Positions 48,533-64,000 are shown, counted from the first letter of the stretch. The stretch: 64,000 bases of DNA from an uncultured Acidobacteriota bacterium (GCA_963729875.1 CAVSPR010000010.1:77704-141703), one strand, 5' to 3'. Notes: generated from the sequence alone by a model not told the origin. Made by a program: numbers and translations.

Positions 48533-48897
48533 GGGAGCCCCCCCCCGGCGCCGCCGGCCCGCGCCGCCTCCTTCGCCGAAGCGGAGAGGATGGCGGCGAA
48601 CCGCAGGACGTCGAACAGGCTGCCCGAGGTGCGGATGAGCCCCTGCATCTTCGCCTCCAGCGGGTTCAGGGTCCCCGCCATCAATCGGTCCAGCGTGCCT
48701 TCGTCGAGCTCGAAGAAGGGTGAGGCGTCGTCGGCCGCCGGACCGAGCGAGGCCCGGCCCCCGTCGATCAGAAGGTGGATGCGTTCGGCCCCGATCGCGA
48801 GGCCGACGCACCTGTCCCAGCCCCGCAGCATGCGTCCCACGGAATCGCTCCGGTTGGCGGCCTCGACCAGCAGCCCGACCTTGCCCGCGGCGTCCAC
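48529..48897 (-). CDS. SCP2 (sterol-carrier-protein-2) domain lipid-binding protein
   Basis: 122 aa. ..FELDEGTLDRLMAGTLNPLEAKMQGLIRTSGSLFDVLRF is the canonical SCP2 C-terminal helix pattern. Confidence 0.7.
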   Translation of the reverse strand: MDAAGKVGLLVEAANRSDSVGRMLRGWDRCVGLAIGAERIHLLIDGGRASLGPAADDASPFFELDEGTLDRLMAGTLNPLEAKMQGLIRTSGSLFDVLRFAAILSASAKEAARAGGAGGGLP

Positions 48898-48916
48898 GAT
48901 CGATGCCTCCCCGCCC

Positions 48917-50371
48917 TCACGCCGTGACCGGGGCTTCGAGGTAGGCGTTCACGTCGACCTCCTCCATCCAGCGGGTGTCGGACCGCGTCAGGCGATGGCC
49001 GTGGCCCTTCTTGCGGGTGGCGTCGATGCCCGTCTTCACGGAGAAGTCCCCCACCCGGGCGGCGTCGGTCAGCTCGCCGGTCGCTTCCAGCACCACGACG
49101 TCGCGGGTGGCGACCACCCGCGTGTCCACCGCCCACTGCACGTCCTGCGGGTCGTAGATGTCCACGTCGGTGTCGACCACCACGATCCGCTTGAGCCGCG
49201 CGGAGAAGGCGAACAGCCCGCGGATGAGATCGAGGGGCTCGCTCTCGCTCCGCTTGTCGACCGCCACCACGAGCCCGGTGCCGGGCACGCCGGGCAGCAC
49301 GAAGAGGTCCTTCACGTTGGGGGAGATCAGGGAGACGAACCGCCGGGTCTTCGCGAGTTCGGTCATGTTCAGGGGGAGGATGAGCGACACCATCTCGAGC
49401 GACGTGCAGACCAGGCTGTGGAAGACGGGGGCCTCCCGCCGGCGCACGGCCGTGACGTTCACGCAGAACCCCTCGGTGGCCTGGCTGGCGATGAGGTCGT
49501 ACTCGGTGAACGGCCCCTCGCGGACCCGCTCGTCCGGGTCGATCGTTCCCTCGATCAGGAACTCGGCGTCGGCCGGCACGGGCAGGTCGACGGTGAGCCC
49601 CCGCGCCACCTCGTAGGGAGCGCCCTGGAGCGCACCGGCCACCGCGAGCTCGCTCTGGCCGAAAGGCACGCTCATGGTGGCCGCGACGAGCAGGGAGGGC
49701 GCGACGCCGACCGCGATCGCGACCTCCAGCCGCTTCCCCTGCCGCGACGCGCCGTAGAGGATCGACAGGAGGTCCCGCCTGGCGTTGACCATGATGGCCA
49801 GCCGCCGCTCGTCGAGCAGCTGGATGCGGTAGATGCCGGCGTTCAGATGGCCGGTGGCGTCGTCCCGGGCGATGGTGACGGCCGTGGTGAGGTAGGGACC
49901 GGCGTCCTCGCGGAAGTACCAGGAGGCAGGGACGAGCCGCGGGACGTCCACCTCCCGGTCCACGACGGTGTGCTCCCATTGGCCGCCGGCGGCCACGGGC
50001 TCGATCGGATGCGCCAGCGCCCCCATGACCGCGGCCTCCAGCTCCCGGTAGAGGCCCAGGAACATCGGGTTGGTCGCCCAGACGGGGTAGACGATGCCGG
50101 GCTTGCGAAGCCCCGCGTAGAGGCCGGCCAGCTCCGGCTGCATCGGGATGGTGGGGAGGACGCCCGTTCGCAGCGGCATGAGGAACAGGTTGCCGGCGGC
50201 CGTCACGCCCGGGTGGCCCACGATCTGCTCGAAGAGAACGGCCTTGCGGAGCGTCCTCTCCACCTGCCACTGGACCGCCGCCATCTCGTGCCGGGTCTCG
50301 ACCGGCCGCCGGACGCGGACCAGGTGCCCCAGGTCCTCGAGCTCCTCGATGTACTCTCGCAGGCCATTCAT
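48917..50371 (-). CDS. UbiD-family (prFMN-dependent) decarboxylase
   Basis: Intact 484 aa. Contains LFEQIVGHPG, NAGIYRIQLLDERRLAIM, GQSELAVAGALQGAPYEV, AEFLIEGTIDPDERVREGPFTEY and the C-terminal UbiD fold. Confidence 0.85.
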   Translation of the reverse strand: MNGLREYIEELEDLGHLVRVRRPVETRHEMAAVQWQVERTLRKAVLFEQIVGHPGVTAAGNLFLMPLRTGVLPTIPMQPELAGLYAGLRKPGIVYPVWATNPMFLGLYRELEAAVMGALAHPIEPVAAGGQWEHTVVDREVDVPRLVPASWYFREDAGPYLTTAVTIARDDATGHLNAGIYRIQLLDERRLAIMVNARRDLLSILYGASRQGKRLEVAIAVGVAPSLLVAATMSVPFGQSELAVAGALQGAPYEVARGLTVDLPVPADAEFLIEGTIDPDERVREGPFTEYDLIASQATEGFCVNVTAVRRREAPVFHSLVCTSLEMVSLILPLNMTELAKTRRFVSLISPNVKDLFVLPGVPGTGLVVAVDKRSESEPLDLIRGLFAFSARLKRIVVVDTDVDIYDPQDVQWAVDTRVVATRDVVVLEATGELTDAARVGDFSVKTGIDATRKKGHGHRLTRSDTRWMEEVDVNAYLEAPVTA

Positions 50372-50390
50372 GGCCGAGGCTCCCCGGGGG

Positions 50391-51209
50391 TCAGATCAGT
50401 CTGCCGAGCTCGGACCCCCGTCTCTCGTTGCGATACTCGGACAGCATCTCCGTCGAGATCTCCACCTTGTCCCGGAGCCACGCGAGCGCCTTGCGGTTGA
50501 ACTCCAGGTACGGCTCGAAGGGAAGGCGGTACCCCAGGGAGTGGATGAGCGACATCACGACGCCCAGGCACACCGGCTGCGCGCGGTAGCTCGTGGCGTA
50601 GTCGGACTTGTGTCCTCCGTCGCCGAGCACGTTCATCTCGTGGAGCTCCTGCGACGTGCTCTTGTGGACGGCGCCCTCGAGCTCCTCCGGGGAGAGGTAC
50701 TTGACGAGATCGAAGAGGTCGTCGCCGACGTAGTCGACCACCGGGTGCTCGAGGGTGATGCCGAACGCGCGATACAGCTGGTCGATCATCTCCAGCCCCT
50801 TGCGCGTCTGGTCGACCCACAGGGCCATGGTGATGTTCGCGCCGTCGAGCACGTGGGCGACGTCGTTGTCGAGGCAGTACATGATCGTCCGCACGTGCAT
50901 CCCCATCCGGCAGTGCAGGCAGAGGGAGGCCTCCATGAGCCCGTGCCGGAGCACGGAGCGGAGCTGCTTCTTCGTCAGGATCTTCTCGATCACCGCCCCG
51001 GCCGGCATCATCACGTGCGTGAAGCGCACGCCCGGGAACGCCTCCCGCAGGCGGGGCACGTTCCGCCCGGCGAACTCGTCCAGGCACGAGACGGGGACCT
51101 CGTAGGTGAGGAGGACGATCTCCTCGAACCGGCCCGACCGGGCGGCCTTGGCGGCGGCGAGCGTGCAGTCGGAGCCGCCGGAGAAGAGCACGACCGCCCT
51201 CGCGCTCAC
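50391..51209 (-). CDS. PP-loop (adenine nucleotide alpha-hydrolase superfamily) ATPase-like protein, function unknown
   Basis: The N-terminal VVLFSGGSDCT resembles the SGGxDS PP-loop. An internal CLHC motif is present. The GTG start overlaps the upstream stop (GTGA). Confidence 0.55.
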   Translation of the reverse strand: MSARAVVLFSGGSDCTLAAAKAARSGRFEEIVLLTYEVPVSCLDEFAGRNVPRLREAFPGVRFTHVMMPAGAVIEKILTKKQLRSVLRHGLMEASLCLHCRMGMHVRTIMYCLDNDVAHVLDGANITMALWVDQTRKGLEMIDQLYRAFGITLEHPVVDYVGDDLFDLVKYLSPEELEGAVHKSTSQELHEMNVLGDGGHKSDYATSYRAQPVCLGVVMSLIHSLGYRLPFEPYLEFNRKALAWLRDKVEISTEMLSEYRNERRGSELGRLI

Positions 51210-51421
51210 GCCGCCCCCCTTCCCGGTTTCGCCTGCTCGATGATGTCGAACATCACGCGAAAGAACTCGTACCGCCTCCAGACCGGCAGCCGGGCGAGGG
51301 CGAGCGCGAACCGGCTCTTCAGCCGGATCGTCGGGATCAGCACGAAGGTCGAGAGGACGAGGAAGCTGAGCGCGGCTCTCCCCACCCTGACCGTCCTGTG
51401 GGGAGAGATCATCTCTTCCAT
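51206..51421 (-). CDS. Small single-TM protein, first gene of the 11-gene operon (hypothetical)
   Basis: 71 aa from the ATG complementary to 51419-51421: MEEMISPHRTVRVGRAALSFLVLSTFVLIPTI... The stop is coupled to the next gene. No recognisable family. Confidence 0.35.
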   Translation of the reverse strand: MEEMISPHRTVRVGRAALSFLVLSTFVLIPTIRLKSRFALALARLPVWRRYEFFRVMFDIIEQAKPGRGAA

Positions 51422-51589
51422 GCTGTGAGCCCCCGCCGGAGGGTTCTCGTGTGCCTCACTGAACGCCCAAGGCGCCGGCAACCTCAATAGTGCAAGTGGA
51501 CTACGCACCGCCGGGGACGGCACGACTCACTGCTATTCTTGGTCCGCCTCGAGTCGCCGTCGGGTGCGCGTGGACGAAGGAGGGCCAGT

Positions 51590-53155
51590 GTGGGCAAGAA
51601 GATGAAGAGCGCGGGACCGCCGCCGGCCCCGCCCGGCACGCCGGTCCCGGCGGCGGGCGCTGCGTCGCGGGCCCTCCTGCTCCTCGCCCCGCTCCTCTCC
51701 GGCGCGGCCATCATGGGGCTCGAGCTCGTCGGCCTCCGGCTCCTCGCCCCGCGCTTCGGCGCCTCGACGTACGTGTGGGGAGGGCTCCTCGGGACGATCA
51801 TGGCGGCGCTCGCCGTCGGCTACCTGCTCGGCGGGGCGCTGGCCGACCGGCGCCCGCGCCCCGCGTGGGTCTTCGGGCTCCTCGTCGCGGGCGGGGCCTG
51901 GGTGGCGGGGAGCCTCCTGGTCACGGAGGCGGTCCTCGACGCGGCCGAGCGGCTCGGCGCCACCCTGGGCCCCCTCCTCGCGACCGGCGTTCTCCTCGGG
52001 CCCCCCATGCTCCTGCTCGGCTCGGTGTCCCCCTTCGTCATCCGGCTCGAGGCCCAGCTCTCCTCCCTCGGGGTCACCGCCGGGCGCGTCTTCGCCCTGT
52101 CGACCGCGGGCAGCCTCGCCGGCACGTTCGTCGCGGCCTTCTGGTGGATCCCGGATTACGGGTGCCGTCACACGCTCCGGATCCTGGTCGCCGCGCTGGT
52201 GGTGCCGGGGATGCTGGGGCTCGCCTGGCCGCGCTCCCGCGCCGCGAGGGCGGCGGCGGCCCTCGTTCTCGCCGCCCTCCCCCTCCTGGCGCCGGACGCG
52301 CCGCTCCCGCCGGGCATCGTCTTCGCCGAGGAGTCCCCCTACAACACCGTCTTCGTCGAGAAGCAGGGAGAGAACACGCTGCTGCGACTCAACGACCCCA
52401 GGCGCGGCTTCCACTCGGTGCAGCTGGGGCGGGGAATGCTCACCGGGGCCTACTACGACGTCCTCTACCTCGGCCCGCTCCTCGCGCAGGGAAGGGACGT
52501 GCTGGTCCTGGGGATGGGCGGAGGGACGACGGTGCGCGCCTACCGCCGCTTCTACCCCGGCGCCCGCGTGAGCGCGGTCGAGATCGACCCCGTGATCGTC
52601 CGGGTCGCGCACGAGTTCATGGGCGTCGCGCGCGGCCCCGACCTCGACGTGCACGTCGAGGATGCCCGGCCGTTCCTGAAGCGGGGGAAGAGCGCCTTCG
52701 ACGTGATCGAGGTCGACCTCTTCGCGGGCGGCCCGTACGCGCCCTTCTACTGCCTGACCCGGGAGTTCTTCGAGGCGGTGCGGGCGCGGCTCGAGCCCTC
52801 CGGCCTCGTCTCGATGAACGTCTACGCGCCCGGCGGCGACCGCACGCTCGCCGAGGCCGTCGTGGCTACCCTGGCCGCGGTGTTTCCCACCGTCCTGGAG
52901 TTCCCGCTCGCCGAGGAGCGGGTGCTGATCGCGTTCAGGGAAGAGACCTCTCTGGATCGGGTCCGCGCGCTTCTCTCCGACCCCGCCCTGCCCGAGGAGC
53001 TCGGAGCCGTCGCGCGTGAAGCGACGGTCGCGCTGCGACCGGCGACGCCCGGCCGCGGGGCCGTTCTGACCGACGACCGCGCCCCCGTCGAGCCGCTGAC
53101 GCACGCGATGATCGTCCGCCGGGACCTCCTTCGCGAAGGGAGCCGTCGGCACTGA
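51590..53155 (+). CDS. Fused membrane domain / spermidine-synthase-like protein (second paralogue in the window)
   Basis: Start is GTG 51590 or ATG 51602. N-terminal TM helices (LLSGAAIMGLELVGLRLLAPRFG). C-terminal domain DVLVLGMGGGTTVRA..VSAVEIDPVIV..FDVIEVDLF..PFYCLTREFFEAVRARLEPSGLV. Confidence 0.8.
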   Translation: MGKKMKSAGPPPAPPGTPVPAAGAASRALLLLAPLLSGAAIMGLELVGLRLLAPRFGASTYVWGGLLGTIMAALAVGYLLGGALADRRPRPAWVFGLLVAGGAWVAGSLLVTEAVLDAAERLGATLGPLLATGVLLGPPMLLLGSVSPFVIRLEAQLSSLGVTAGRVFALSTAGSLAGTFVAAFWWIPDYGCRHTLRILVAALVVPGMLGLAWPRSRAARAAAALVLAALPLLAPDAPLPPGIVFAEESPYNTVFVEKQGENTLLRLNDPRRGFHSVQLGRGMLTGAYYDVLYLGPLLAQGRDVLVLGMGGGTTVRAYRRFYPGARVSAVEIDPVIVRVAHEFMGVARGPDLDVHVEDARPFLKRGKSAFDVIEVDLFAGGPYAPFYCLTREFFEAVRARLEPSGLVSMNVYAPGGDRTLAEAVVATLAAVFPTVLEFPLAEERVLIAFREETSLDRVRALLSDPALPEELGAVAREATVALRPATPGRGAVLTDDRAPVEPLTHAMIVRRDLLREGSRRH

Positions 53156-53413
53156 GGGCCCCGCCCGCTCCTTCGGGGGAGAGAGCGAAAACGTACTCTC
53201 GGTGTACACATACCGTTCCCCCCAGAACCACCAGTGACACGCGAATCACCGGATGAATCATCGGCACCATTGCCCGTAGCAGGGGGGGCCGGTAAAAAGA
53301 GGTGTGTTCCAGTGTCGTGGTGGGGGAGAGGGTTTCGGAGATTCCGCACTCCTTCCCAGGGTTTTCACCTGACAGGAAGATTCGATCGCTCCCCGCCCCC
53401 CAGCGACAATGGA

Positions 53414-53427
53414 CGTTAGCGCTAACG
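53414..53427. promoter_or_regulatory. Perfect 14-bp palindrome CGTTAGCGCTAACG in the leader of the omcS-like gene (candidate operator or RNA hairpin)
   Basis: Self-complementary by inspection. Lies 42 nt upstream of ATG 53469 within a 313-bp comparatively AT-rich intergenic region. Confidence 0.3.
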
Positions 53428-53468
53428 AGTCAGCTGAAAACCCGTCATCTCCAAGGAGAAGCGTACCG

Positions 53469-54602
53469 ATGAAAGCCTACAAACTCCTGATCCTCGCGGC
53501 GGCTGCCGTGCTGGTGACGGGAGCCCCGGCTCTCGCCTTCCACGACGGCGGCGTCGCCGCCTGCAACGGCTGCCACACCATGCACAACAGCTCGAACGGC
53601 CAGCCCATGAACTACAAGGCCGATGGCACGATCGGCGGCACCCCCGTCGGCACCGGCTACACCGACCTGCTCCTCTTCCAGAACAAGTCCGACGTGTGCC
53701 TGCGCTGCCACGGCAACAACACCGCGTCCTACGGCGTGTGGTCGTCCGACCCCGCGGCCCCGAACGTCGTCCGTGCGAACCGGGGCGGCGGCGACTACGT
53801 CTTCCTGCAGGAGGACAACATCAACGACGGCCGCGGCGGCGCCACGAACCCGATCCTGGGTCACGCGGCGGGCCACAGCGTGATCTCCGGCATCAAGGGC
53901 ACGTCCGCCGACCCCGTCCTCACGACGTCCCCCGGCGGCACTTTCGCCGCCGCCAACCTGGCCTGCACGTCCTGCCACGACCCGCACGGCACGGGCTCCT
54001 ATCGGCTGCTGTACCAGTCCGGCCAGAGCGTGAACACCGCGGTCTTCACCAGCACCTTCGACGCCGACGGCATCGCGCTGTCGACCACGGTCGGGGAGTC
54101 GGCCACCAACCACAACGCCTACAAGGGCGGCATCAGCGGCTGGTGCGGCACCTGCCACGGAAACTTCCACGCGAAGTCGGGCAACCTCATCCACCCCTCG
54201 GGCGAGCCCCTGGGCGACGACATCGCGACGGCCTACAACCTCTACAAGGGCACCGCGGACTGCATCGCCAACCCGCCGACGGGAACGCTCCCCTGCGGCA
54301 GCGGCGTCCAGGCCACGGCCTACCTGCCTCAGGTGCCCTTCGCGGACGCCTCAGCGACCATCACGTCCACCGCGGGGCCCACGTCCAACAGCGCTGTGGC
54401 CTGCATCAGCTGCCACCGCGCCCACGCCACCTCGGCGCCGAACGCGGGCCGCTGGGACTTCAACATCCTGGGCATCGCCACGGACGGCAACATCTCGGGC
54501 TCCTACAAGATCCCGAACCCGTACGACGACTACCAGCGCTCGCTGTGCAACAAGTGCCACTCCAAGGACGAGTTCGACGAGCTGGAGGACTTCGTTCCCT
54601 AG
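53469..54602 (+). CDS. omcS: OmcS-family hexahaem c-type cytochrome (candidate nanowire-forming subunit)
   Basis: AGGAG RBS 10 nt upstream of ATG 53469. Signal peptide ..GAPALA then FHDGGVAACNGCHTMHNS. Six CXXCH motifs (CNGCH, CLRCH, CTSCH, CGTCH, CISCH, CNKCH). Blocks SPGGTFAAANLACTSCHDPHG, ISGWCGTCHGNFH, CISCHRAHA and YQRSLCNKCHSKD parallel my recollection of G. sulfurreducens OmcS (FHSGGVAECEGCHTMHNS, ..CSSCHDPHG, ..WCANCH.., ..CLSCHRAHA, YQRALCNKCHAKD). Confidence 0.85.
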   Translation: MKAYKLLILAAAAVLVTGAPALAFHDGGVAACNGCHTMHNSSNGQPMNYKADGTIGGTPVGTGYTDLLLFQNKSDVCLRCHGNNTASYGVWSSDPAAPNVVRANRGGGDYVFLQEDNINDGRGGATNPILGHAAGHSVISGIKGTSADPVLTTSPGGTFAAANLACTSCHDPHGTGSYRLLYQSGQSVNTAVFTSTFDADGIALSTTVGESATNHNAYKGGISGWCGTCHGNFHAKSGNLIHPSGEPLGDDIATAYNLYKGTADCIANPPTGTLPCGSGVQATAYLPQVPFADASATITSTAGPTSNSAVACISCHRAHATSAPNAGRWDFNILGIATDGNISGSYKIPNPYDDYQRSLCNKCHSKDEFDELEDFVP

Positions 54603-54623
54603 AGTCCCGAACTCGAGCGTGTA

Positions 54624-54653
54624 GCCCGGGGCGTGAGCCCCGGGCTTTTTTTT
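54624..54653 (+). terminator. Rho-independent terminator directly after the omcS-like gene
   Basis: GCCCGGGGC-GTGA-GCCCCGGGC (perfect 9-bp GC stem, 4-nt loop) followed by T8. It starts 22 nt after the stop codon. Confidence 0.8.
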
Positions 54654-54686
54654 CGGGCGGACCCCCTCGGGGCGGGGGGAGCGACC

Positions 54687-54709
54687 TGGTGCAAATGGTG
54701 CAAATGGTG
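54687..54709 (+). promoter_or_regulatory. 9-bp direct repeat (TGGTGCAAA x2.6); candidate sigma-54 -24/-12-like element or regulator site ahead of the downstream cluster
   Basis: TGGTGCAAATGGTGCAAATGGTGG. Read as TGGTGCA-N4-GTGCA, it has GG and GC at the spacing of the TGGCACG-N4-TTGCW consensus. It sits between the terminator and the barrel gene. Confidence 0.25.
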
Positions 54710-54795
54710 GAGTGACTCGGGGGCCGTCCCGTGGTCAGAATGGGCCCTCCAGCGGAGCCATGAGGCCGACGCGCGTGCGGGATCACCGACCGACG

Positions 54796-56901
54796 ATGGA
54801 CGTCAGGGGAGCCACCCCGTTGCACCCGGCGTGTGCGGCCTTCCTGCTCGTCTCGCTGGCCGGGCTCGCGTCGCCGGCCCTCCCCGCCGACCTCACCGGA
54901 AGCGCCCTGGTGGCGAACACCTCGACCACTGCCGGCGCCTTCAAGAGCGACCTCCTCGAGCAGCAGTACACGCTGGGCCTCTTCCAGCCGCTGACGCCCT
55001 ACCTCACGGTGCGCGTCGGCTACCAGTACTTCGACCTCGGGACCACGTTCCAGGGCGGCACCTCCTTCACCCGCAGCACGTCGCAGCCCCTGGTCGAGCT
55101 CCTCTACAACCGCGAGGAGCTGTCGGCGCGCGTGGCGGCCTACCAGCTCTCGGTCGACAGCTCGGCCGCGGCGGAGAGCCTGGACCGGCGGTCGCTCGCC
55201 GCCAACCTGAGCTGGAAGTCCTCGTTCGGGCCCGGGTTCAGCGTGGACTTCCGGGACGAGCGCAACGTCGCCGACGTCTCCGCGTTCGGACGGGACGTGA
55301 ACACGCGGCTCCTGGACCTCACGGCCTTCTACAACCGCCGGCACTGGTCCGCCAGCTACACCTACGAGACCCTCACCGTCGACAACCAGTCGAACGCCTT
55401 CCGGAGCGATCAGGACCGGCACGAGGCCCGCCTGAGCGCGCAGCGTTCGTTCTGGGCCGATCGTCTCTCGGTGGGGCTGTCCGGGCAGGCCAGCCTCCTC
55501 GGCCGCACGACAGGGATCGGCGAGGAGGCGGAGCTCGCCGAGCCCGTTCCCGCCGCCGCCGGCCTCTTCGCCGTCGACGCCTCGCCGGAGATCGGCGAGC
55601 TCGTGAGCAGCCCTACTCTCGTCGACGGGGACGCCGTCACACCGGCCTCGCCTCCGGTCGAGATCGGGGGGGCGAGCACGTTCCGCAACGTCGGGGTCGA
55701 CCTGGGCGTGACCCGCCCGATCACCCGCCTGGAGATCGCGACGGACGTCGTCTCCGGCCCGTCCGTCGTCTGGCAGGTCTACCGCAGCCGGGACAACCTG
55801 TTCTGGGAGGCGGTCTCCGGGGCCACCTCGACCTTCGATTCGGGACTCCTGCGGTACCGCATCCTCTTCCCCCAGACCGAGGACCGGTTCTTCAAGGCCG
55901 TGAACGTCTCCGTCAATGCGGCGTCCGCGGTGCGCGTCACCGAGGTCCGGGCCCTGCTGGACCGGGCGGCGACGGCCTTCGCCGAGGACTCCGACGACAG
56001 CCTCTACCGGGGCGACGTGATCCTGGGCTTCAATCCCTCCCGGAGGGTGAGCATGGCCGTGGGCTTCGGGGCGAGCTCGGACGAGACGCTGGCCGCCGGC
56101 CTCGTGCGCCGCGACTACGAAGACGTGCACGCCCAGGCGCGCCTCTCGGTCATCCTCGCCCGGGACCTCGACCTCAACCTGGGGTACCGCTACAACGACT
56201 CCGCGAACCGGGCCGATCCGGTGCTGCTGCGGACCGTGAACCACTACAGCGCGAACCTGGTCTGGAAACCCCTCCCGACCGTGGACGCCGCCCTCACCGT
56301 CGGCCGCCGGGACGAGTCCGAGAAGGCGACTCTCCTGCAGTCACAGGACTCCGTCCGCCTCGGCGTGAGCTTTCAGCTCCTGGAGGACCTGCGCTACATG
56401 ACGAACTTCGACGTCTCGCGGCTCGCGGATCCCTTCGAGGGGCGCGACCGCAACAGCTGGACCTGGACCCACACCCTGGAGATGCGCCCCCTCCCGGCGT
56501 GGGACGTCTCCGGCAGCCTCACGCTCTCCCGCAACGAGACGTTCGCCGGCGAGCCCCTCCTCGACCGGACCCAGTACCAGCTCTGGACGACCTGGAACCC
56601 CACCTCGTACCTCTCGCTGAGCGGCAACTGGTGGTACACCGACGACGGCGGGCGGGGCTCCCTCAACCAGAGCTACAACCTCTCGTACGCGCCCGGGGAC
56701 CGGCTCACGGTCTCGGCCACGTACCAGGGGTACGAAGACGCCGGGGGCTTCCAGACGTCGACCGACAGCCTCAGCGCGACCTATCGCCTGTTCATGCAGT
56801 TCCTCCTCTTTGCTAACCTCTCGAGGTCGACGAGCGAGGGCACCCAGGGCGAGAGCACCCGGGTGTCCAACTTCCGAGCGGGCCTCCAGCTCGCCTTCTA
56901 G
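54796..56901 (+). CDS. Large outer-membrane beta-barrel protein with an internal discoidin (F5/8 type C)-like domain
   Basis: The start is uncertain (ATG 54796 gives a signal-like ..AAFLLVSLAGLASPALPA). Alternating beta-strand pattern (YLTVRVGYQYFDL, LSARVAAYQLSVD, WSASYTYETLTVD ...). The C-terminus ends ..NFRAGLQLAF. The central segment about 55560-55965 (FRNVGVDLGVTRPITRLEIA..VVWQVYRSRDNLFWEAV..) looks like a soluble jelly-roll domain. Confidence 0.6.
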   Translation: MDVRGATPLHPACAAFLLVSLAGLASPALPADLTGSALVANTSTTAGAFKSDLLEQQYTLGLFQPLTPYLTVRVGYQYFDLGTTFQGGTSFTRSTSQPLVELLYNREELSARVAAYQLSVDSSAAAESLDRRSLAANLSWKSSFGPGFSVDFRDERNVADVSAFGRDVNTRLLDLTAFYNRRHWSASYTYETLTVDNQSNAFRSDQDRHEARLSAQRSFWADRLSVGLSGQASLLGRTTGIGEEAELAEPVPAAAGLFAVDASPEIGELVSSPTLVDGDAVTPASPPVEIGGASTFRNVGVDLGVTRPITRLEIATDVVSGPSVVWQVYRSRDNLFWEAVSGATSTFDSGLLRYRILFPQTEDRFFKAVNVSVNAASAVRVTEVRALLDRAATAFAEDSDDSLYRGDVILGFNPSRRVSMAVGFGASSDETLAAGLVRRDYEDVHAQARLSVILARDLDLNLGYRYNDSANRADPVLLRTVNHYSANLVWKPLPTVDAALTVGRRDESEKATLLQSQDSVRLGVSFQLLEDLRYMTNFDVSRLADPFEGRDRNSWTWTHTLEMRPLPAWDVSGSLTLSRNETFAGEPLLDRTQYQLWTTWNPTSYLSLSGNWWYTDDGGRGSLNQSYNLSYAPGDRLTVSATYQGYEDAGGFQTSTDSLSATYRLFMQFLLFANLSRSTSEGTQGESTRVSNFRAGLQLAF

Positions 56902-56912
56902 GACGGTCAGAC

Positions 56913-57500
56913 ATGAGCCAATGCGCTTCCGTCGCCTCCCTCCTCCTCCCGGCCGCGCTGGGCCTCGGCGCCTGTGGCGGCACGATGAAGGCCACGCAGT
57001 TCACCAACCCGAAGTTCGACTTCGCCTTCGTCCAGAGGGTGGCGGTCCTGCCGTTCGACAACGAGAGCATCGACCGCCAGGCCGGCTCCCGGGCCACGCG
57101 CCTCGCGATCACCGAGCTTCTGGCCACCGGGGCGGTGGACGTGGTCGAGCCGGGCGAGGTGCAGGCCGCGCTCGTCAAAGTCGCCGGGGCCGTCTCCGGA
57201 CGCCCGGTCGCCCCGAGCACCGAGCAGATCCTCGCGCTGGGCAAGGCCCTGAACGTACAGGCGCTCCTCCTCGGTAGCGTCACCCAGTCGGAGAACCTGC
57301 GCTCGGGCGCCGTGCCCATCCCGGTGGTGACCGTCGACCTGCACCTCGTCGAGACCGAGACGGGCGCCACGGTCTGGGCCACGACCCACAGCGAGAAGGG
57401 GGGCAGCCTCGAGGCCCGTGTGCTCGGGACCGGCGGCGAGCCCATCGCGGAGACGACCCGCCGGTGCGTGCACGAGGCCCTCAAGACGCTGGTCAAGTAG
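56913..57500 (+). CDS. Lipoprotein with a TolB-N/LpoB/CsgG-like alpha-beta domain
   Basis: Lipobox LGLGAC. VAVLPFDNESIDRQAGSRATRLAITELLATGAVDVVEPGEV.. and ..ALLLGSVT.. resemble small OM-anchored scaffold lipoproteins. Confidence 0.6.
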   Translation: MSQCASVASLLLPAALGLGACGGTMKATQFTNPKFDFAFVQRVAVLPFDNESIDRQAGSRATRLAITELLATGAVDVVEPGEVQAALVKVAGAVSGRPVAPSTEQILALGKALNVQALLLGSVTQSENLRSGAVPIPVVTVDLHLVETETGATVWATTHSEKGGSLEARVLGTGGEPIAETTRRCVHEALKTLVK

Positions 57501-57510
57501 CGGGTCCCGC

Positions 57511-58590
57511 GTGAACCTCAGGTCAACTCTCGCCGCCGCTGCCGTCCTGCTGGCCGCTGCGTCGGCGGCCCCGGGGGGCGGCACGGCCGCCGCGGACGCG
57601 CGCGCGGTCGCGCTCTTCCCCGTGCAGGACCGGGCGGGCGACCCCGCGGCCGCCGCCGCGGTCGGCGAGGCGCTGCGGAGCGAGCTGGGCCGCCTCGGCC
57701 GTCTCGTCGGCCCGGGCGAGACGCGGGACGCGCTGCGCCGGCTGCGCATCCGGAACGGGGACCGCATCACCCCCCAGCTCCTGCGCCAGCTCGGCCGCGA
57801 GCTGGCGGCCGACTGGCTGGCCTCGGCCACGCTGCACGAGGCCGACCGGAGCCTGGTGCCCGGCCTGACCCTTTCGGTCCGGCTCTACTCGAGCGAGACC
57901 GGGGAGCTCGTCTTCTCGGGCTTCCGCGGGGAGAGCGGCCTCGATCGGCGGAAGCTGCTCGGGCTCGGGGTGATCGCCGGGATCGAGGATCTCACCCCCC
58001 TCGTGGCCCGCGATCTCCTGCGAGATCTCCCGCTCGTGGCAGACGGCGCGGGGGCCGCGCGCCCCCGCGAGCCGCGCCGGAGCCGGCTCGGCACCGTCGC
58101 CGTCGTCCCCTTCACCGGCTCGACCGCCTTTCAGCCCACGTTGAGCGCCGAGGCCGTCACCGAGGCCGTTCACGCCCGTCTCTTCGCCGACGGCGTTTCC
58201 GTGGTCTCGCCGAACCGCTTGTACGACGTCCTGCGCCGGCTCCAGGGCGGCCAGTGGGGCGGCGTCACCTCGCAGACACTTGCCGCCCTCGAGCGCACCG
58301 CGTCGGCCGACACGATCCTCACCGGCACGGTCGAGACCTGGGACCTCGGGGGCGGGGAAGCCGAGCCGGAACCGGAGGTCGCGGTCGCCCTTCGGCTGCT
58401 GGAGGCCTCGACCGGCCGCATACTGTGGACGGGCGCCTCGGAGCGCCGAGGCTGGGACGGCCAGGGCCTTTTCCGCCGCGGGCGCGTCCACTCCCGGGGA
58501 GCCCTGACCGCGCGAGTGATAGAGGACCTCGCCCGCCGTCTCGACCGGGACGGCATCGAGGTCGCTCCCCGAACCGAAGGACGACGATGA
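57511..58590 (+). CDS. Secreted protein with two copies of the same lipoprotein-like domain
   Basis: GTG start at 57511 with a signal peptide. The two halves each carry V(A/V)L/VPF..., ...TG.V..W pattern (AVALFPVQDRAGD.. and VAVVPFTGSTAF..ILTGTVETWD). The stop overlaps the next start (ATGA). Confidence 0.5.
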   Translation: MNLRSTLAAAAVLLAAASAAPGGGTAAADARAVALFPVQDRAGDPAAAAAVGEALRSELGRLGRLVGPGETRDALRRLRIRNGDRITPQLLRQLGRELAADWLASATLHEADRSLVPGLTLSVRLYSSETGELVFSGFRGESGLDRRKLLGLGVIAGIEDLTPLVARDLLRDLPLVADGAGAARPREPRRSRLGTVAVVPFTGSTAFQPTLSAEAVTEAVHARLFADGVSVVSPNRLYDVLRRLQGGQWGGVTSQTLAALERTASADTILTGTVETWDLGGGEAEPEPEVAVALRLLEASTGRILWTGASERRGWDGQGLFRRGRVHSRGALTARVIEDLARRLDRDGIEVAPRTEGRR

Positions 58591-60320
58591 CACCGAGATC
58601 CTTGCTCGCCGCCACGCTCCCGCTCCTGCTTGTCCTGGCTGGAGAGCCAGGGCTTGCCCTGGCCGCGCAAGCCCAACCGGCGTCCCCCGCGGCGCCGGAG
58701 CCCGGCGTCATCGCCCAGGTGAACGGGGAGCCCGTCTACCTGGAGGATCTCGAGAACCTGCTGGAGCAGAAGCACAGCGGCGCCGCGGAAGGCCGGCGGA
58801 GCCGGCCCGACCTGAACCAGCTGATGTTCCGGCTCGTCAACGACACGCTCCTGGCCCAGGAGGCCCGCGCGCTGGGGATGGACGAGGATGACCCCATCCC
58901 CTCCCGGCTGGCGGCCCGACGCGAGAGTCTCGCGACCGCCCGCCTCGAGAGCGAGGAGATCTGGAGCCGGGCCGAGGCCACCGACGAGGAGGTCCAGCAG
59001 GCCTTCGCCGAGCAGTACCGCAGGATCACGTTCCGGATCCTCACGGTCCGCGAGCGGCCGAAGGCCGAGGCCCTGCGCGGGCAGATCGAGAAGGGGGCCG
59101 ACATCGGCGCCCTCGCGAAGGAGATCTCGATGGACCCGTACGGGCCGAAGGGAGGCCTTGTCGAGAACCTCGCGAGGATCGACACCCCGAACGAGTTCGC
59201 GGCCGCCCTGTTCGCCCTCGAGCCCGGCGCCCTCGCGGGACCCCTGGTCACCCGCCTCGGCTACAGCGTCGCGCGGGTCGAGTCGCTCGCGCCCGCCGAC
59301 CCCGCGCGGCTGGAGAAGCTGAAGCCGTCGCTGCGGACCTTCGTGCGCTTCCGCAAGGCGGACGCCCTCCGTGCCGACCTCGGCGCGCGCCTGCGCGCCG
59401 CGCACAAGGTCTCGATCGACGAGTCGGTGCTCGCGGCGATCGTCCCCGAGCGGCTCCCCGACGGGAGGCTCATGCCGAAGGTCGAGAGCCGCGACGCCGT
59501 CGTCGCCCGCGTCGCCGAGCGCACGATCACCGCGGGAAAGCTCGGTCAGACCCTCGGCCGGCGGTGGGGAGGGGTGGCGAACGAGGAGGCCGCCCTCGCG
59601 GCGAAGCCCATCGTCCTCGATCGCCTGGTCGAGGGGGAGCTGATGGTGGCCGAGGCCCTGGCCCGCGGCTATGGGGACACGAAGGAGGCCAAACGCGCGC
59701 TGCACGCCGCCCAGACCCAGCTTCTCGCCCCGCGCTTCCTGAGCCAGGTGGTGGCCGCGGAGATCCGGGTCACGCCGGAGGAGACGGCCGCCTGGTACGA
59801 GCGGAACAAGGAGAGCTACCACCGGCCGCCGCGGCTGCACCTGCGCCAGATGACGGTGGCCACCGAGGCGGAGGCGCAGCGCCTCGCCGCCCTCGTGCGG
59901 CAGGGCGCGGACTTCGGCTGGCTCGCGCGCCAGCACTCGACGGACGGCTACAAGGAGAGCGGCGGAGACAAGGGCTGGGCCACCCCCAAGGGGACGGGCG
60001 AGGCTCTCGAGGCCGCCCTCTTCGACGCGAAGCCGGGGGACGTGCTCGGGCCCCACCCCGCTCCGGAGGGCTTCACCGTCGTGCGGGTCGAGGCCCGGGA
60101 AGAGCAGGGGATCTACGACTACGGCGAGGTCTCGGGGAACGTGCGCAAGGTCCTCGAGGACCAGAAGCGCCAGCAGGCGATCGACGCGGTGATCCAGAAG
60201 CTGCGGGGGCGATCGAAGATCGAGGTGTACGACGACCGGGTCGCGGCGCTGGCGATCAGCGTGGCCCCGGCCGCCGAGGCGGCGCCGTCCCACGTCGCGC
60301 CGCCGAGACCCGAGCCCTAG
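58587..60320 (+). CDS. SurA/PpiD-like periplasmic chaperone with two parvulin PPIase domains
   Basis: Signal peptide and an N-terminal SurA-like helical region (IAQVNGEPVYLEDLENLL). Two parvulin blocks (ADIGALAKEISMDPYGPKGGLV...GYSVARVES and ADFGWLARQHSTDGYKESGGDKGW...GFTVVRVEA). Confidence 0.8.
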   Translation: MTPRSLLAATLPLLLVLAGEPGLALAAQAQPASPAAPEPGVIAQVNGEPVYLEDLENLLEQKHSGAAEGRRSRPDLNQLMFRLVNDTLLAQEARALGMDEDDPIPSRLAARRESLATARLESEEIWSRAEATDEEVQQAFAEQYRRITFRILTVRERPKAEALRGQIEKGADIGALAKEISMDPYGPKGGLVENLARIDTPNEFAAALFALEPGALAGPLVTRLGYSVARVESLAPADPARLEKLKPSLRTFVRFRKADALRADLGARLRAAHKVSIDESVLAAIVPERLPDGRLMPKVESRDAVVARVAERTITAGKLGQTLGRRWGGVANEEAALAAKPIVLDRLVEGELMVAEALARGYGDTKEAKRALHAAQTQLLAPRFLSQVVAAEIRVTPEETAAWYERNKESYHRPPRLHLRQMTVATEAEAQRLAALVRQGADFGWLARQHSTDGYKESGGDKGWATPKGTGEALEAALFDAKPGDVLGPHPAPEGFTVVRVEAREEQGIYDYGEVSGNVRKVLEDQKRQQAIDAVIQKLRGRSKIEVYDDRVAALAISVAPAAEAAPSHVAPPRPEP

Positions 60321-60336
60321 GAGAGCGTCGCGAACC

Positions 60337-62280
60337 ATGAGAGCGATCATGCGGAGACCATCGAGGATCGGCCTGGCGGCGGCGCTCGCTGCCGTGGGCC
60401 TCGGCGCCGGCGTCGCCCACGGCCAGCTGAAGAAGGGGGCGCGCTTCGAGAAAGGCGGCTCCTGCGTCGAGTGCCACGCCGACGTGGGCAAGGCGCGCAA
60501 GGTGCCGCACGCCCCCATGGCCCAGGGCGACTGCACGGTCTGCCACAAGCCCCACGGCCTGGTCGGCGCCCTGCGACTGCAGTCGGAGGAGCCGAAGCTG
60601 TGCCTCGGCTGCCACCAGGCGGCGGCGCTCGGGCTCGAGGCGGCGCACCGCCACCCCGAGGTGGACAAGTGCTCTCGGTGCCACGACCCGCACGGCTCCG
60701 ACCACGCGAAGATCCTGAGGACCGCCGCGCGTGAGCTCTGCACGAGCTGCCACAAGGACGGCGGGTTCGGGGGGAAGGTCGTCCACGCCCCGGTGGGCGA
60801 GGGCTGCCTCACCTGCCACCGGCCGCACGGGTCGGCCGAGGCCTCTCTCCTCGCCCAGCCCGGTGAGACCCTCTGCACCTCCTGCCACGACGGGTCGAAC
60901 GGTTTCGCCGCGGCCCACGGGGGCTTTTCGGTGGCTGGAGCGAAGTGCGCGTCCTGCCACCCGCCCCACTCCGCGGCCAGCGACCACCTGCTCCGGGCCT
61001 CGGTGCACCCTGCCCTCGAGTGCGGCACCTGCCACGAGCAGGCAACGCGCACGGCCGCCCCGGCCGCCGGCGCCGGCGTGTGCTTGAACTGCCACGAGAA
61101 GCCCGAGGCCGGCAAGGGCAGCCTGCACCCGCCGGCCGCCGAGGGGGACTGCCTGACCTGCCACGACCCCCACACGAGCGACTTTGCCCCGGTGCTGGTC
61201 GGCGCCCAATCGACCCTGTGCGTCGGCTGCCACGACGACGTGGGGAAAGCGCTCGCGGGCAGCCATCCCCACAAGGCCGCCTCGGAGTGCACGGACTGCC
61301 ACAAGGGGCACCGCTCCGACCGCCCGAACCTGCTGAAGGCCGACGGCCGAGCCCTCTGCGTAGGCTGCCATGAGGACCCGGCGAAGAAAGCGGGCGCCGC
61401 CCTCGTTCACGCCCCGGCCGCCGGCGAGTGCACGGCGTGCCACGCGCCTCACGGGACGGGTCGCAAGGCCCTGCTCACCGCCGCCCAGGGCGACCTCTGC
61501 GGGGCCTGTCACTCCGACGTCGGGGCCCGCTCGGGCCTGCCCGTCCTCCACGCCCCGGTGACCCAGGGCGAGTGCGCCGCCTGCCACGAGCCCCACGCGG
61601 GGCCCGCGAAGCTCCTCCGGGCCACGGGCCGGGCGCTCTGCATCCGCTGCCACGATGGGATGCTCAAGGGGACCGACGGCCTCCCGCAGCACGAGCCCTT
61701 CAAGGCGGGCGACTGCGACACCTGCCACCCGCCCCACGCGTCGGAGACGCCGAAGCTCCTCAAGGCCCCGGAGGGCACCCTCTGCCGGGGCTGCCACGAC
61801 GTCCCGGACGCGGCGCCGGCCGGGGGGTCCCTGCACGCGGTCGCCCGCGACCGCTGCACAGGGTGCCACCAGCCCCACGCGAGCGCCACGGCCCACTTCC
61901 TGATGGCCCCGGCGCGGCCCCTCTGCGTCACCTGCCACAAGGAGATCGGCGAGCGGCTCGAGAAAGAGACGGTGCACCCGCCGGCCGGGCAGGACGACGG
62001 CTGTCTGGGCTGCCACCGCCCGCACACCGCAGCCGAGCCCCACCTGCTGCAGGCGTCCGTGTCGAAGACCTGCCTGGGCTGTCACGACGGCACGACACCA
62101 AAGTTCGCGGAGAAGCACCTCGGCTTCCCGCCCGAGGGAATGAACTGCGGGGAGTGCCACGACCCGCACGCTTCACGCGTGGCGGGGATGCTCCTGCCCG
62201 AGACGCACCCGCCGTTCGTCGGGGGGGACTGCACCACGTGCCACACGGGGCCCCGTCCGAAGCAGGAGGGTGCGCGATGA
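60337..62280 (+). CDS. 26-haem periplasmic c-type cytochrome built from about 13 tandem dihaem (paired CXXCH) modules
   Basis: Signal peptide ..GAGVAHG. I counted 26 CXXCH motifs, alternating CxxCH(D/E/K/Q) and CxxCH(P/K/G)PH types about every 24 aa. Confidence 0.9.
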   Translation: MRAIMRRPSRIGLAAALAAVGLGAGVAHGQLKKGARFEKGGSCVECHADVGKARKVPHAPMAQGDCTVCHKPHGLVGALRLQSEEPKLCLGCHQAAALGLEAAHRHPEVDKCSRCHDPHGSDHAKILRTAARELCTSCHKDGGFGGKVVHAPVGEGCLTCHRPHGSAEASLLAQPGETLCTSCHDGSNGFAAAHGGFSVAGAKCASCHPPHSAASDHLLRASVHPALECGTCHEQATRTAAPAAGAGVCLNCHEKPEAGKGSLHPPAAEGDCLTCHDPHTSDFAPVLVGAQSTLCVGCHDDVGKALAGSHPHKAASECTDCHKGHRSDRPNLLKADGRALCVGCHEDPAKKAGAALVHAPAAGECTACHAPHGTGRKALLTAAQGDLCGACHSDVGARSGLPVLHAPVTQGECAACHEPHAGPAKLLRATGRALCIRCHDGMLKGTDGLPQHEPFKAGDCDTCHPPHASETPKLLKAPEGTLCRGCHDVPDAAPAGGSLHAVARDRCTGCHQPHASATAHFLMAPARPLCVTCHKEIGERLEKETVHPPAGQDDGCLGCHRPHTAAEPHLLQASVSKTCLGCHDGTTPKFAEKHLGFPPEGMNCGECHDPHASRVAGMLLPETHPPFVGGDCTTCHTGPRPKQEGAR

Positions 62281-63527
62281 GAGCCAACGGGAGAACCCTC
62301 GCGCTCACGCTCGCTGGGGTGGTCGGCCTCTTCGGTGCCGCCCCCGCCGCGGAGGCCCAGCACACGGCCGGGAGCCAGGTCGACCAGAAGGCCGTCTGCC
62401 TGTCCTGCCACGACCTCGAAGACCTGAAGGCGAAGGTCACCCACGCACCGGCGGCAGCGGGGGAGTGCAGCGCCTGCCACAACCCCCACGTCGCGCGTTT
62501 CAAGAAGCTGCTCCGCGATCGCCCCGCGCCCCTGTGTGCCCGCTGCCACGAGTCGGTGCAGGCCCAGCTGGCGCGCAAGACCGTGCACCGGCCGGTCGCC
62601 GACGGCAAGTGCGCCTCCTGCCACCGGCCGCACGGCAGCCCGAACGAGGGCCTGCTGGTCGCCCCGAGCCGGGACCTCTGCGCCACGTGCCACGCCGACG
62701 TGACGGACTGGAAGGGGCGGAAGGTCCAGCACGCCCCCTTCGCCCAGGGGCGCTGCGCCACGTGCCACGACCCGCACGCGAGCGACGCCCCGGGGCTGCT
62801 CACCCGGGGTGGGGCCGGCCTCTGCGGCAGCTGCCACAAGGTCGATGCCACCCTGCGCGCGCGGCACAAGGGCTACCCGGTCGAGAAGGCGGCCTGCCAG
62901 CAGTGCCACGACCCCCACGCCTCGGCCCGCCCGGGGCTCTTCCGCGAGTCGCTCCACGCCCCATTCGAGAGCGGCGACTGCACCACCTGCCACCGCGGGC
63001 CGGGGGCGGCCGACCCCTTCGCCACCCTCAAGCCCGTCAACGCCCTCTGCGCCGACTGCCACGGCGACGTGGTCGAGGCGTCGCACAAGACGGCCTTCCC
63101 CCACGTGACCGGCGGGGGCTGCACGGCGTGCCACAACCCGCACACCGGCGACGGTCGCGCGCTGCTCCGCAAGCCGCCGCAGGCCCTGTGCACGACGTGC
63201 CACGACCCCGGTGGCTCGAAGTCCGGGGAGAAGGGGCGCCACGCGACCCACGCCGGCTTCGAGTGCACGAAGTGCCATGCGGGCCACGGGGGCCAGCAGC
63301 CGCTGTTCTTCGTCTCGGACTCGATCGAGCTGTGCGCGGGCTGCCACAAGCACGAGCACGGCGTCAGCCACCCGGTCGGCGAGAAGAGCCGCGACCCGAG
63401 GACCGGGGAGCCCATGACGTGCCGCTCCTGTCACGGGATCCACCGCGCCGACGGCGAGAAGTATCTCTTCGAGGCCGACCAGAGGACGCTGTGCCTCGGC
63501 TGCCACAAGGACCTGCGAGGACGCTAA
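62277..63527 (+). CDS. 16-haem c-type cytochrome (paired CXXCH modules)
   Basis: The ATG overlaps the upstream stop (ATGA). Signal peptide ..AAPAAEAQ. I counted 16 CXXCH motifs. Confidence 0.9.
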   Translation: MRANGRTLALTLAGVVGLFGAAPAAEAQHTAGSQVDQKAVCLSCHDLEDLKAKVTHAPAAAGECSACHNPHVARFKKLLRDRPAPLCARCHESVQAQLARKTVHRPVADGKCASCHRPHGSPNEGLLVAPSRDLCATCHADVTDWKGRKVQHAPFAQGRCATCHDPHASDAPGLLTRGGAGLCGSCHKVDATLRARHKGYPVEKAACQQCHDPHASARPGLFRESLHAPFESGDCTTCHRGPGAADPFATLKPVNALCADCHGDVVEASHKTAFPHVTGGGCTACHNPHTGDGRALLRKPPQALCTTCHDPGGSKSGEKGRHATHAGFECTKCHAGHGGQQPLFFVSDSIELCAGCHKHEHGVSHPVGEKSRDPRTGEPMTCRSCHGIHRADGEKYLFEADQRTLCLGCHKDLRGR

Positions 63528-63529
63528 CG

Positions 63530-64000
63530 ATGAACCGACCGATCACTCTCCTGCTGGCTGCCGGGGCGGTGGTGGGCCTCGCCGGCGCCCGTCCCGTCCG
63601 TGCCCAGGTCAGCCCGCCCCGGGTGCTCGCCTTCCAGGAGGCGCTCAAGGGGACCGAGGCGGCCTCCCTCCGCTGTCCGCTGGCCGTCGCCGCCGCTTCC
63701 GACGACGAGGTGGCGGTCGCCGACGCCTCCGGCCCCCGCCTCCTGCGCTTCCGCAAGGTCGGCGTGTCGTGGCAGCTCGACCGCACCGTCCCGATGGGGG
63801 GAGCCCCGGCCGGCCTCGCCTGGGACGGGCGACGCTACGTCGCCTCGCTCCGGCAGAACGCGGGCCTCGTGGCCTTCGAGGGCCCGGAGCTCGCCCAACG
63901 CCGCCTGCCCCTCCCGCGCGGCGTCGTCCCCGGGGCGCTGGCCGCGGGGCCGGCCGGCGGCCTGCTCCTCTACGACGCCGCGAAGCGCAGCGTGCTGCGC
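63530..64000 (+). CDS. Secreted NHL-repeat/beta-propeller-like protein, 3' end outside the window
   Basis: ATG lies 2 nt after the upstream stop. Signal peptide MNRPITLLLAAGAVVGLAGARPVRAQ. Short repeats of the type P.GLAWDGRRYVA.. and ..VAVADASGPRLLRF are consistent with NHL blades. Only about 157 aa are visible. Confidence 0.45.
   Translation, partial: MNRPITLLLAAGAVVGLAGARPVRAQVSPPRVLAFQEALKGTEAASLRCPLAVAAASDDEVAVADASGPRLLRFRKVGVSWQLDRTVPMGGAPAGLAWDGRRYVASLRQNAGLVAFEGPELAQRRLPLPRGVVPGALAAGPAGGLLLYDAAKRSVLR

Follow-up and report, generated by a model that had tools for sequence, protein, structure and literature searches.

A probable osc/Oet-type multihaem cytochrome cassette with a single OmcS-family gene in an uncultured Acidobacteriota bacterium

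Do the eight genes that close a stretch of DNA from an uncultured Acidobacteriota bacterium (GCA_963729875.1, CAVSPR010000010.1:77704-141703) encode one machine that exports and wires an extracellular cytochrome of the OmcS kind, an electron conduit across the outer membrane, or a fortuitous collection of envelope proteins and cytochromes? The whole stretch that was analysed, hereafter the window, is 64 kb long with a G+C content of 72%, and the genes in question (g1 to g8) follow one another on the + strand from 53469 to the window end at 64000 (Table 1). A first-pass annotation had read them as an OmcS-like subunit, an outer-membrane barrel, a lipoprotein, a tandem-domain lipoprotein-like protein, a SurA-like chaperone with two parvulin domains, a 26-haem cytochrome, a 16-haem cytochrome and an NHL/beta-propeller protein, and all eight open reading frames (ORFs) are present in this order at the positions given for them. 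The CxxCH motifs number exactly 6 in g1, 26 in g6 and 16 in g7, in agreement with the haem counts and the OmcS-like subunit claimed there, and these are the sole multihaem ORFs across the window. The reported overlaps of start and stop codons are equally real, namely ATGA at 58587 (g4/g5) and at 62277 (g6/g7), as is the spacer of 2 nucleotides (nt) between g7 and g8, before 63530. The successive gaps from g2 to g8 are tiny or negative (11, 10, -4, 16, -4 and 2 nt), so that g2-g8 make up one packed operon; the gap between g1 and g2 is about 190 nt.

The locus is, very probably, a homologue of the cassette described as osc in Geobacter sulfurreducens and as Oet elsewhere. Its genes are co-inherited across many phyla and are linked far more often than chance would allow. 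When one genome per GTDB species was scanned with an alignment of the OmcS family, at least 79 loci came up, and these were then searched with the companion proteins of the window. Among the 30 well-flanked loci (at least 9 kb on both sides; matches listed), the g3 lipoprotein is encoded in 23, and g3, g5 and g6 together in 18. The reverse test, in which metagenome contigs were anchored on g3 with a narrower g3 alignment as the query, gave the barrel and the hexahaem gene in each of the 18 loci that extend 4 kb or more upstream, and g4, g5, g6 and g7 in each of the 17 that extend 6.5 kb or more downstream; in 9 of these 17, the 16-haem gene is followed by an NHL gene. The first-pass annotation had proposed such a count of co-occurrence and held that an absence of linkage in other genomes would speak against a single machine; linkage is what both anchors yield.

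Among the matches listed, the full order recurs in metagenome-assembled genomes (MAGs) labelled Acidobacteriota, Fibrobacteria, Zixiibacteriota, Krumholzibacteriota and Ignavibacteriales, and also in Planctomycetota MAGs, where the barrel went undetected by tblastn. Loci of Nitrospirota, Geobacter sp. AOG1 and Geomonas hold most of the set, usually with no detectable g4 or g2. The nearest named homologues come from Thermoanaerobaculia and Acidobacteriota MAGs, the best GTDB representative being 57% identical (among the matches listed); the bacterium itself is probably Thermoanaerobaculia-like. That unrelated envelope genes merely happen to stand beside three cytochrome genes is refuted by dozens of loci, from at least seven phyla, in which gene order and spacing recur, and by the overlapping or nearly contiguous genes; in favour of a fortuitous adjacency there is only the fact that g2 and g8 have no Pfam annotation, and we give this reading practically no credence.

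Some loci depart from this pattern. OmcS-like genes with no companions (e.g., L016, L019, L020 and L028) look like orphan paralogues. In a permuted form of the cassette, the hexahaem gene comes after the 16-haem gene instead of before the barrel (L133 and L153 among the metagenome loci; L021, L022, L037 and L066 among the genomes), the order of the companion genes being unchanged. A Nitrospirota MAG (L038, 6706-16500) carries five tandem hexahaem OmcS-family paralogues upstream of a g3-type gene, a local expansion of the subunit gene.

Two published systems have the same composition. The osc (omcS-companion) operon of G. sulfurreducens spans GSU2504-GSU2493 (Shen et al., 2025, Cell Chem Biol 32:239, as described in citing papers). 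A summary of that work (PMC13194489) places omcS, omcT and oscC (GSU2501) in the operon, names GSU2495 oscI and GSU2494 oscJ, and gives OscH a role in folding, OscE, OscF and OscG one in secretion and OscD one in morphology; OscC is given there as periplasmic. According to a Bond-lab preprint, the eight-gene block GSU2500-GSU2493 is always found after a GSU2501-type hexahaem gene, and GSU2495 is a 26-haem protein. In other papers, GSU2497 is described as a lipoprotein, GSU2499 appears as a hypothetical protein, and genes for sigma-54-type regulators are mentioned nearby in G. sulfurreducens. The Geobacter parts list of the first-pass annotation is borne out. With GSU2501 as oscC and GSU2495 as oscI, the letter order would make g2 the counterpart of OscE, g3 of OscF, g4 of OscG, g5 of OscH, g6 of OscI and g7 of OscJ, and g8, by the same reasoning, is inferred to be a GSU2493-type NHL protein.

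G. sulfurreducens PCA is not among the loci listed, and Geobacter sp. AOG1 (L035) and Geomonas edaphica (L047) served as stand-ins. Both maps read hexahaem gene, propeller lipoprotein, barrel, lipoprotein, double-domain lipoprotein and PpiC protein; the 26-haem ORF comes next in L047, and L035 ends within the 26-haem gene (tblastn). The window proteins match those at the same Geomonas and AOG1 positions, with E values of 3e-16 to 8e-17 for g2, 5e-31 for g3, 3e-12 for g4, 2.5e-17 for g5 and 1e-131 for g6. Thus, the synteny with Geobacter expected in the first-pass annotation is found, as homologous genes in the same order. The window shares with osc the succession of hexahaem gene, barrel, lipoprotein, related protein, PpiC chaperone, 26-haem cytochrome, large cytochrome and NHL/propeller protein, but differs in having one hexahaem gene, compared with three in Geobacter (omcS, omcT and oscC), a hexahaem protein that is shorter (mature length of about 354 amino acids (aa), vs 407 aa in OmcS), an OscG-like protein (g4) that is not lipidated, no OscD-type gene in the short interval from the hexahaem gene to the barrel, and no two-component regulator adjoining the cluster, in contrast to L047. 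The close relatives L001 and L080 likewise lack an OscD-type gene between the hexahaem gene and the barrel.

In syntrophic sulfate reducers, the same cassette has been described as an OetI-type, or OetABI, porin-cytochrome conduit (Murali et al., 2023, PMC10553843, after Skennerton et al., 2017). The window has in common with it an outer-membrane barrel, large multihaem cytochromes and an omcS-like gene; moreover, the order of the SEEP-SRB operon, peptidyl-prolyl isomerase (PPIase), 26-haem, 16-haem and beta-propeller, is exactly that of g5-g8. Unlike the Oet loci, the window has no genes for OmcX or Apc2a, its host is outside Desulfobacterota, and it has no lipoprotein among its large cytochromes, OetB being an extracellular cytochrome c lipoprotein in the published description (PMC10553843).

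The case for a filament depends on g1. In a phmmer search of the PDB, the only protein matched by g1 was OmcS (6EF8/6NEF; E=1.5e-32 to 6EF8, in three stretches). The predicted cleavage of its Sec signal peptide leaves FHDGGVAACNGCHTMHNS, and the alignment begins precisely at mature residue 1 of OmcS (FHSGGVAECEGCHTMHNS in OmcS vs FHDGGVAACNGCHTMHNS in g1). Five of the six CxxCH motifs pair with those of OmcS in the phmmer alignment, and the second (CLRCH/CLNCH) does so in the multiple alignment. On this sequence evidence, g1 is assigned to the OmcS family of hexahaem cytochromes, with its six motifs in the OmcS register, and is a candidate filament subunit. His39 of g1, within CHTMH, is the equivalent of His16 of OmcS and is invariant in a 13-sequence alignment that includes the 6EF8 fragment; His16 of OmcS reportedly ligates the haem of the neighbouring subunit. 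The mature N-terminus as a whole (FH.GGVA.C.GCHTMHNS) is invariant across the family alignment.

In a neighbour-joining tree of 98 hexahaem sequences, g1 falls into a non-Desulfuromonadales clade in which the hexahaem gene directly precedes the barrel gene. This clade branches outside the Desulfuromonadales group that holds the 6EF8 OmcS fragment and the Geobacter-type paralogues, so that g1 would be co-orthologous to OmcS, OmcT and OscC and is not assignable to one of them. In a rival reading, g1 would be no filament subunit at all but a monomeric or oligomeric cytochrome of the surface or periplasm, like OscC (GSU2501) or OmcT, in which case the cluster would encode a cell-surface reductase. 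The separate clade agrees with such a role, as do the periplasmic location given for OscC and the fact, noted in the Bond-lab preprint, that GSU2501 and not omcS directly precedes the companion block in Geobacter. The invariant N-terminus with its His16 equivalent argues in the opposite direction, as does the fact that g1 is the sole hexahaem gene of the window, and a terminator-like hairpin that follows g1 is expected of an abundant structural subunit. On balance, we find a non-filament g1 unlikely and retain g1 as the candidate subunit.

The hairpin begins 21 nt past the g1 stop in a terminator scan, and its RNA folds with -35.3 kcal/mol (z=-3.5), a value equalled by none of 200 shuffles. 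Its position is conserved: in 15 of the 17 loci examined, window included, the strongest 40-nt hairpin lies 5-61 nt past the stop of the hexahaem gene (the loci with a hairpin at the same position include L001-L024 and L080), and in 9 of the 15 loci tested no other 40-nt hairpin anywhere in the locus is as stable. Major pilin genes have a comparable layout, with a hairpin after the subunit gene. By this analogy, the hairpin is likely to be an attenuator or a stabiliser of the mRNA 3' end that favours the subunit over the machinery. Between the terminator and g2, there is a tandem repeat (TGGTGCAAA TGGTGCAAA TGGTGGAG) whose first 16 nt fit the sigma-54 -24/-12 pattern GG-N10-GC, the sole strict match in the window on both strands. 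The motif, at 54687, is not conserved in related loci, and it offers weak, unproven evidence for a sigma-54-like promoter. A putative sigma-70-like promoter upstream of g1, which is a match to the consensus only, is the single such match within 52800-64000, where shuffles lead one to expect 0.1.

Pfam gives no match for g2, which has a signal peptide and a C-terminal Phe. The AlphaFold2 model (predicted local distance difference test score, pLDDT, 90.3; predicted template modelling score, pTM, 0.82) is all-beta, with about 11 + 17 barrel strands split by a beta-sandwich of 148 residues, and on this model we are confident in the prediction of a large outer-membrane barrel of about 28 strands. 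Its best PDB match is MtrB (6R2Q_B; E=1.3e-9, template modelling (TM) score 0.37-0.39); the next matches are to TonB-dependent receptors, LptD and the PapC usher. A homologue of g2 occupies the corresponding place in Geomonas (BLASTP, 8e-17) and in Geobacter sp. AOG1 (hhalign, 98%). Conservation within the barrel protein is highest in the inserted beta-sandwich, which holds 21 of the 31 columns that are invariant in the g2 family alignment. Modelled alone with AlphaFold2, it reaches a pLDDT of 95.9, and the top Foldseek matches are all CBM32/galactose-binding modules (TM 0.55-0.68); the CBM32-like insert is recognisable also in the Geomonas and Geobacter sp. AOG1 homologues. It could serve as a plug, a dock for the filament or a binder of glycans.

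The match to MtrB invites a comparison with MtrCAB of Shewanella (6R2Q), in which, likewise, a large barrel is encoded with an MtrA-like cytochrome of paired CXXCH motifs. The barrels differ, with about 28 strands and a CBM32-like insert in the window vs 26 strands and no insert in MtrB, as do the cytochromes, with 26 and 16 haems vs 10, and the window has no gene for a decahaem lipoprotein of the MtrC/OmcA type. At TM 0.37-0.39, the likeness may be taken at most as an analogy of parts, not as membership of the family. By that analogy, a barrel of about 28 strands would be in the size class that houses MtrA in MtrB.

A second comparison is with the chaperone-usher systems (PapC/PapD), where a periplasmic chaperone is combined with a large barrel that holds an inserted beta-sandwich; PapC is one of the structural matches of g2, the gene of the major subunit comes first and is followed by a hairpin, and the cluster encodes no ATPase. 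In the window, however, a parvulin takes the place of the Ig-fold chaperone, the insert in the barrel resembles CBM32, and the subunit carries haem and has no donor-strand motif. Membership of this class was rejected, given that no Pfam matches to the usher (PF00577) or to PapD-like domains were found among g2-g5.

Three non-cytochrome companions follow the barrel. The lipoprotein g3, with weak Pfam matches to CsgG and LpoB, is the most conserved companion gene. Its homologues, lipoproteins of about 190-200 aa, were found in at least 39 loci (39 of the 79 genome loci listed), and a search of 1.84 billion representatives at E<=1e-10 gave 233 clusters at 50% identity. The two halves of g4 match each other (N- vs C-terminal, E=2e-8) and are matched by g3 (E=2e-6 and 5e-4), g4 being a tandem duplication of the g3-like domain; it also has weak matches to LpoB and FlgO. 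Thus, of the earlier label "tandem-domain lipoprotein-like", the tandem domain stands and the lipoprotein does not, the signal peptide being present and the lipobox cysteine absent. Among the OscG-like homologues, the distant ones of Geomonas (L047, 15704-16801), L004 and L141 have a lipobox, and the closest relatives have a plain signal peptide. The third companion, g5, has two PpiC/parvulin domains (Rotamase_2, E=1.1e-30 over two stretches), helical segments like those of SurA and PrsA with a weak SurA_N match, and PDB matches to SurA, PrsA and HP0175. It is built by internal duplication of a helical-plus-parvulin module (E=1e-13).

The two large cytochromes, g6 and g7, are both peptide-minimised, with about 25 aa per haem. 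In g6, there are 59 His and 12 paired-CXXCH units (Pfam), the NCBIfam model of the DmsE/MtrA family scores 293 bits, phmmer matches 6R2Q chain A with E=1e-15, and the identity to the 26-haem ORF of Geomonas is 39%; homologues of the same clade have a common cleaved N-terminus (QLKKGSRF, cleaved after A). In g7, there are 36 His and 8 paired-CXXCH units, and the phmmer match to the same chain has E=6.5e-19. We take 6R2Q chain A, the best PDB hit, to be MtrA; in the sequence file this chain is labelled "Cystathionine beta-synthase", probably a mislabel, as the region matched is multihaem sequence and the fold library lists the entry as "Structure of the Mtr complex". The fragment of g8 within the window (156 aa) obtains no Pfam annotation, and it shares 70% identity with its positional counterpart in the related contig L080, a protein that matches NHL with E=1.9e-12.

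These MtrA-like proteins lead to the question of whether the cassette is purely a porin-cytochrome conduit of the OetABI type, similar to MtrCAB, with g2 as the sheath of g6 or g7, the hexahaem protein as an extracellular electron acceptor or donor that is exported otherwise (e.g., by type II secretion), and g3-g5 acting in the biogenesis of the barrel and the cytochromes. The matches of g6 and g7 to MtrA and to the DmsE/MtrA-family model and the MtrB match of the g2 model all fit such a conduit, and Murali et al. read the same cassette in this way and note its expression in an omcB mutant on Fe(III) oxide (PMC10553843). Conversely, the summary of the genetic work puts OscEFG in OmcS secretion and OscH in folding (PMC13194489), the window has no lipoprotein cytochrome, which is a feature of OetB, and barrel and hexahaem gene occur together in 18 of 18 metagenome loci. 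Furthermore, the most conserved part of the barrel is the CBM32-like insert, which belongs to no cytochrome and which the conduit model does not predict. We regard a conduit with no part in secretion as rather unlikely.

A combined role in secretion and electron conduction seems most likely, and membership of the osc/Oet cassette, coupled with a mechanism of export plus wiring, is in our view the probable overall explanation of the locus. Attachment of c-type haems takes place in the periplasm, so the subunit would have to cross the outer membrane in folded form. Beyond the homology, architecture and co-inheritance that the sequences show, we propose that the hexahaem subunit g1 would be exported by Sec and acquire its haems in the periplasm, that the OscH-like parvulin chaperone g5 would hold it competent for assembly, and that it would pass as a folded holoprotein through the barrel and its partners (g2-g4, OscEFG-like) or polymerise there. 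The cytochromes g6 and g7 would act as haem rods that span the periplasm and feed electrons, at the same barrel, to the base of the extracellular hexahaem polymer, and the hairpin after g1 would set a high ratio of subunit to machinery. In MtrA, 10 haems span about 80 Angstrom; scaled from this, the 26-haem protein would be a rod of some 200 Angstrom and the 16-haem protein one of some 130 Angstrom, lengths sufficient to bridge the periplasm and in keeping with the Oet model. As a complete scheme, with each of these steps in place, the mechanism is a tentative proposal in which we place slightly less than even trust.

Several points weigh against the export-plus-wiring account. One is the position of g1 outside the group of OmcS and the Geobacter paralogues; according to the Bond-lab preprint, a wire is known in Geobacter only for OmcS, not for OmcT or GSU2501. 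A review of 2025 still regards the way in which OmcS is secreted as speculative. The YNCE/lactonase-like propeller lipoprotein of the OscD type is absent: tblastn of the Geomonas and AOG1 counterparts against the 64 kb gave nothing better than E>0.1. The signal peptides of g6 and g7 contain no cysteine lipobox, whereas OetB of the published conduit is a lipoprotein, and the structural likeness of g2 to MtrB is weak (TM about 0.38) and of a degree common to generic large barrels.

A more specific form of the export-plus-wiring account makes g2 a dual usher and conduit, in which the CBM32-like insert would dock or gate the polymer while the g6 and g7 rods enter from the periplasm, and sees in the OscD-less, single-subunit set of eight genes an ancestral minimal module that would suffice for nanowires in a heterologous host. 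The OscD-less, single-subunit version is indeed widespread outside Desulfobacterota (among the matches listed). In this elaborated form we consider the idea improbable; if true, secretion and electrical connection would be one structure.

The most likely start of the barrel gene is 54796 (or the GTG at 54775) and not 54712, and that of the tandem-domain gene is the GTG at 57511. For the sequence past 64000, contig L080 served as a stand-in, and there a second NHL/SGL gene follows the counterpart of g8. The description of the gene set as "complete" in the first-pass annotation went too far: the window ends inside the NHL gene, the relative has that additional gene, and OscD, OmcT and OscC are missing. 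Upstream of the cluster, the window encodes a protein with a spermidine-synthase domain (51539-53155, +) and a UbiD-family decarboxylase (48917-50371, -), for neither of which a link to the cluster was seen, and overlapping long ORFs (45894-48811, -) with NAD-binding reductase and FAD-binding domains; these neighbours (45894-53155) differ from those of L080. Rfam and tRNA scans of the window gave no matches.

Table 1. Features of the cytochrome cassette and its putative signals, in window coordinates
Feature	Coordinates	Strand	Remarks
Sigma-70-like promoter match GTGACA-16-AATCAT (putative)	53234..53261	+	~210 nt upstream of g1
g1, OmcS-family hexahaem c-type cytochrome (predicted)	53469..54602	+	377 aa
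Intrinsic-terminator-like hairpin	54623..54654	+	10-bp stem (9 G-C pairs), then 8 T
Tandem repeat TGGTGCAAA TGGTGCAAA TGGTGGAG	54687..54712	+	between terminator and g2
g2, outer-membrane beta-barrel (predicted; OscE/OetI position)	54796..56901	+	701 aa; alternative GTG start 54775
CBM32/discoidin-like beta-sandwich insert (modelled)	55528..55971	+	g2 residues 245-392
g3, small lipoprotein (OscF position)	56913..57500	+	195 aa, lipobox LGAC
g4, periplasmic protein with two g3-like domains (OscG position)	57511..58590	+	359 aa, GTG start
g5, secreted double-parvulin SurA/PrsA-like chaperone (OscH position)	58587..60320	+	577 aa
g6, 26-haem periplasmic cytochrome (OscI/GSU2495 type)	60337..62280	+	647 aa
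g7, 16-haem cytochrome (OscJ/GSU2494 position)	62277..63527	+	416 aa
g8, NHL-repeat (beta-propeller) secreted protein, N-terminal 156 aa	63530..64000	+	cut by window end

What the first-pass annotation put forward as one machine matches two published models: folding and export through the barrel is the Osc model, and wiring through the large cytochromes is the OetABI model. The concept having been published as osc (2025) and as Oet (2017/2023), the cassette is no new kind of system, and the locus of the window is one more, slightly slimmer member of it. With a single subunit gene, no OscD and a length of about 10.5 kb plus the remainder of the NHL gene, this compact version, whose host is not one of the Desulfobacterota, is a possible minimal set for reconstitution. 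Together with the CBM32-like insert of the barrel and the conserved hairpin, the compact variant could provide handles on whether the barrel acts as a secretion channel, an electron conduit or both.

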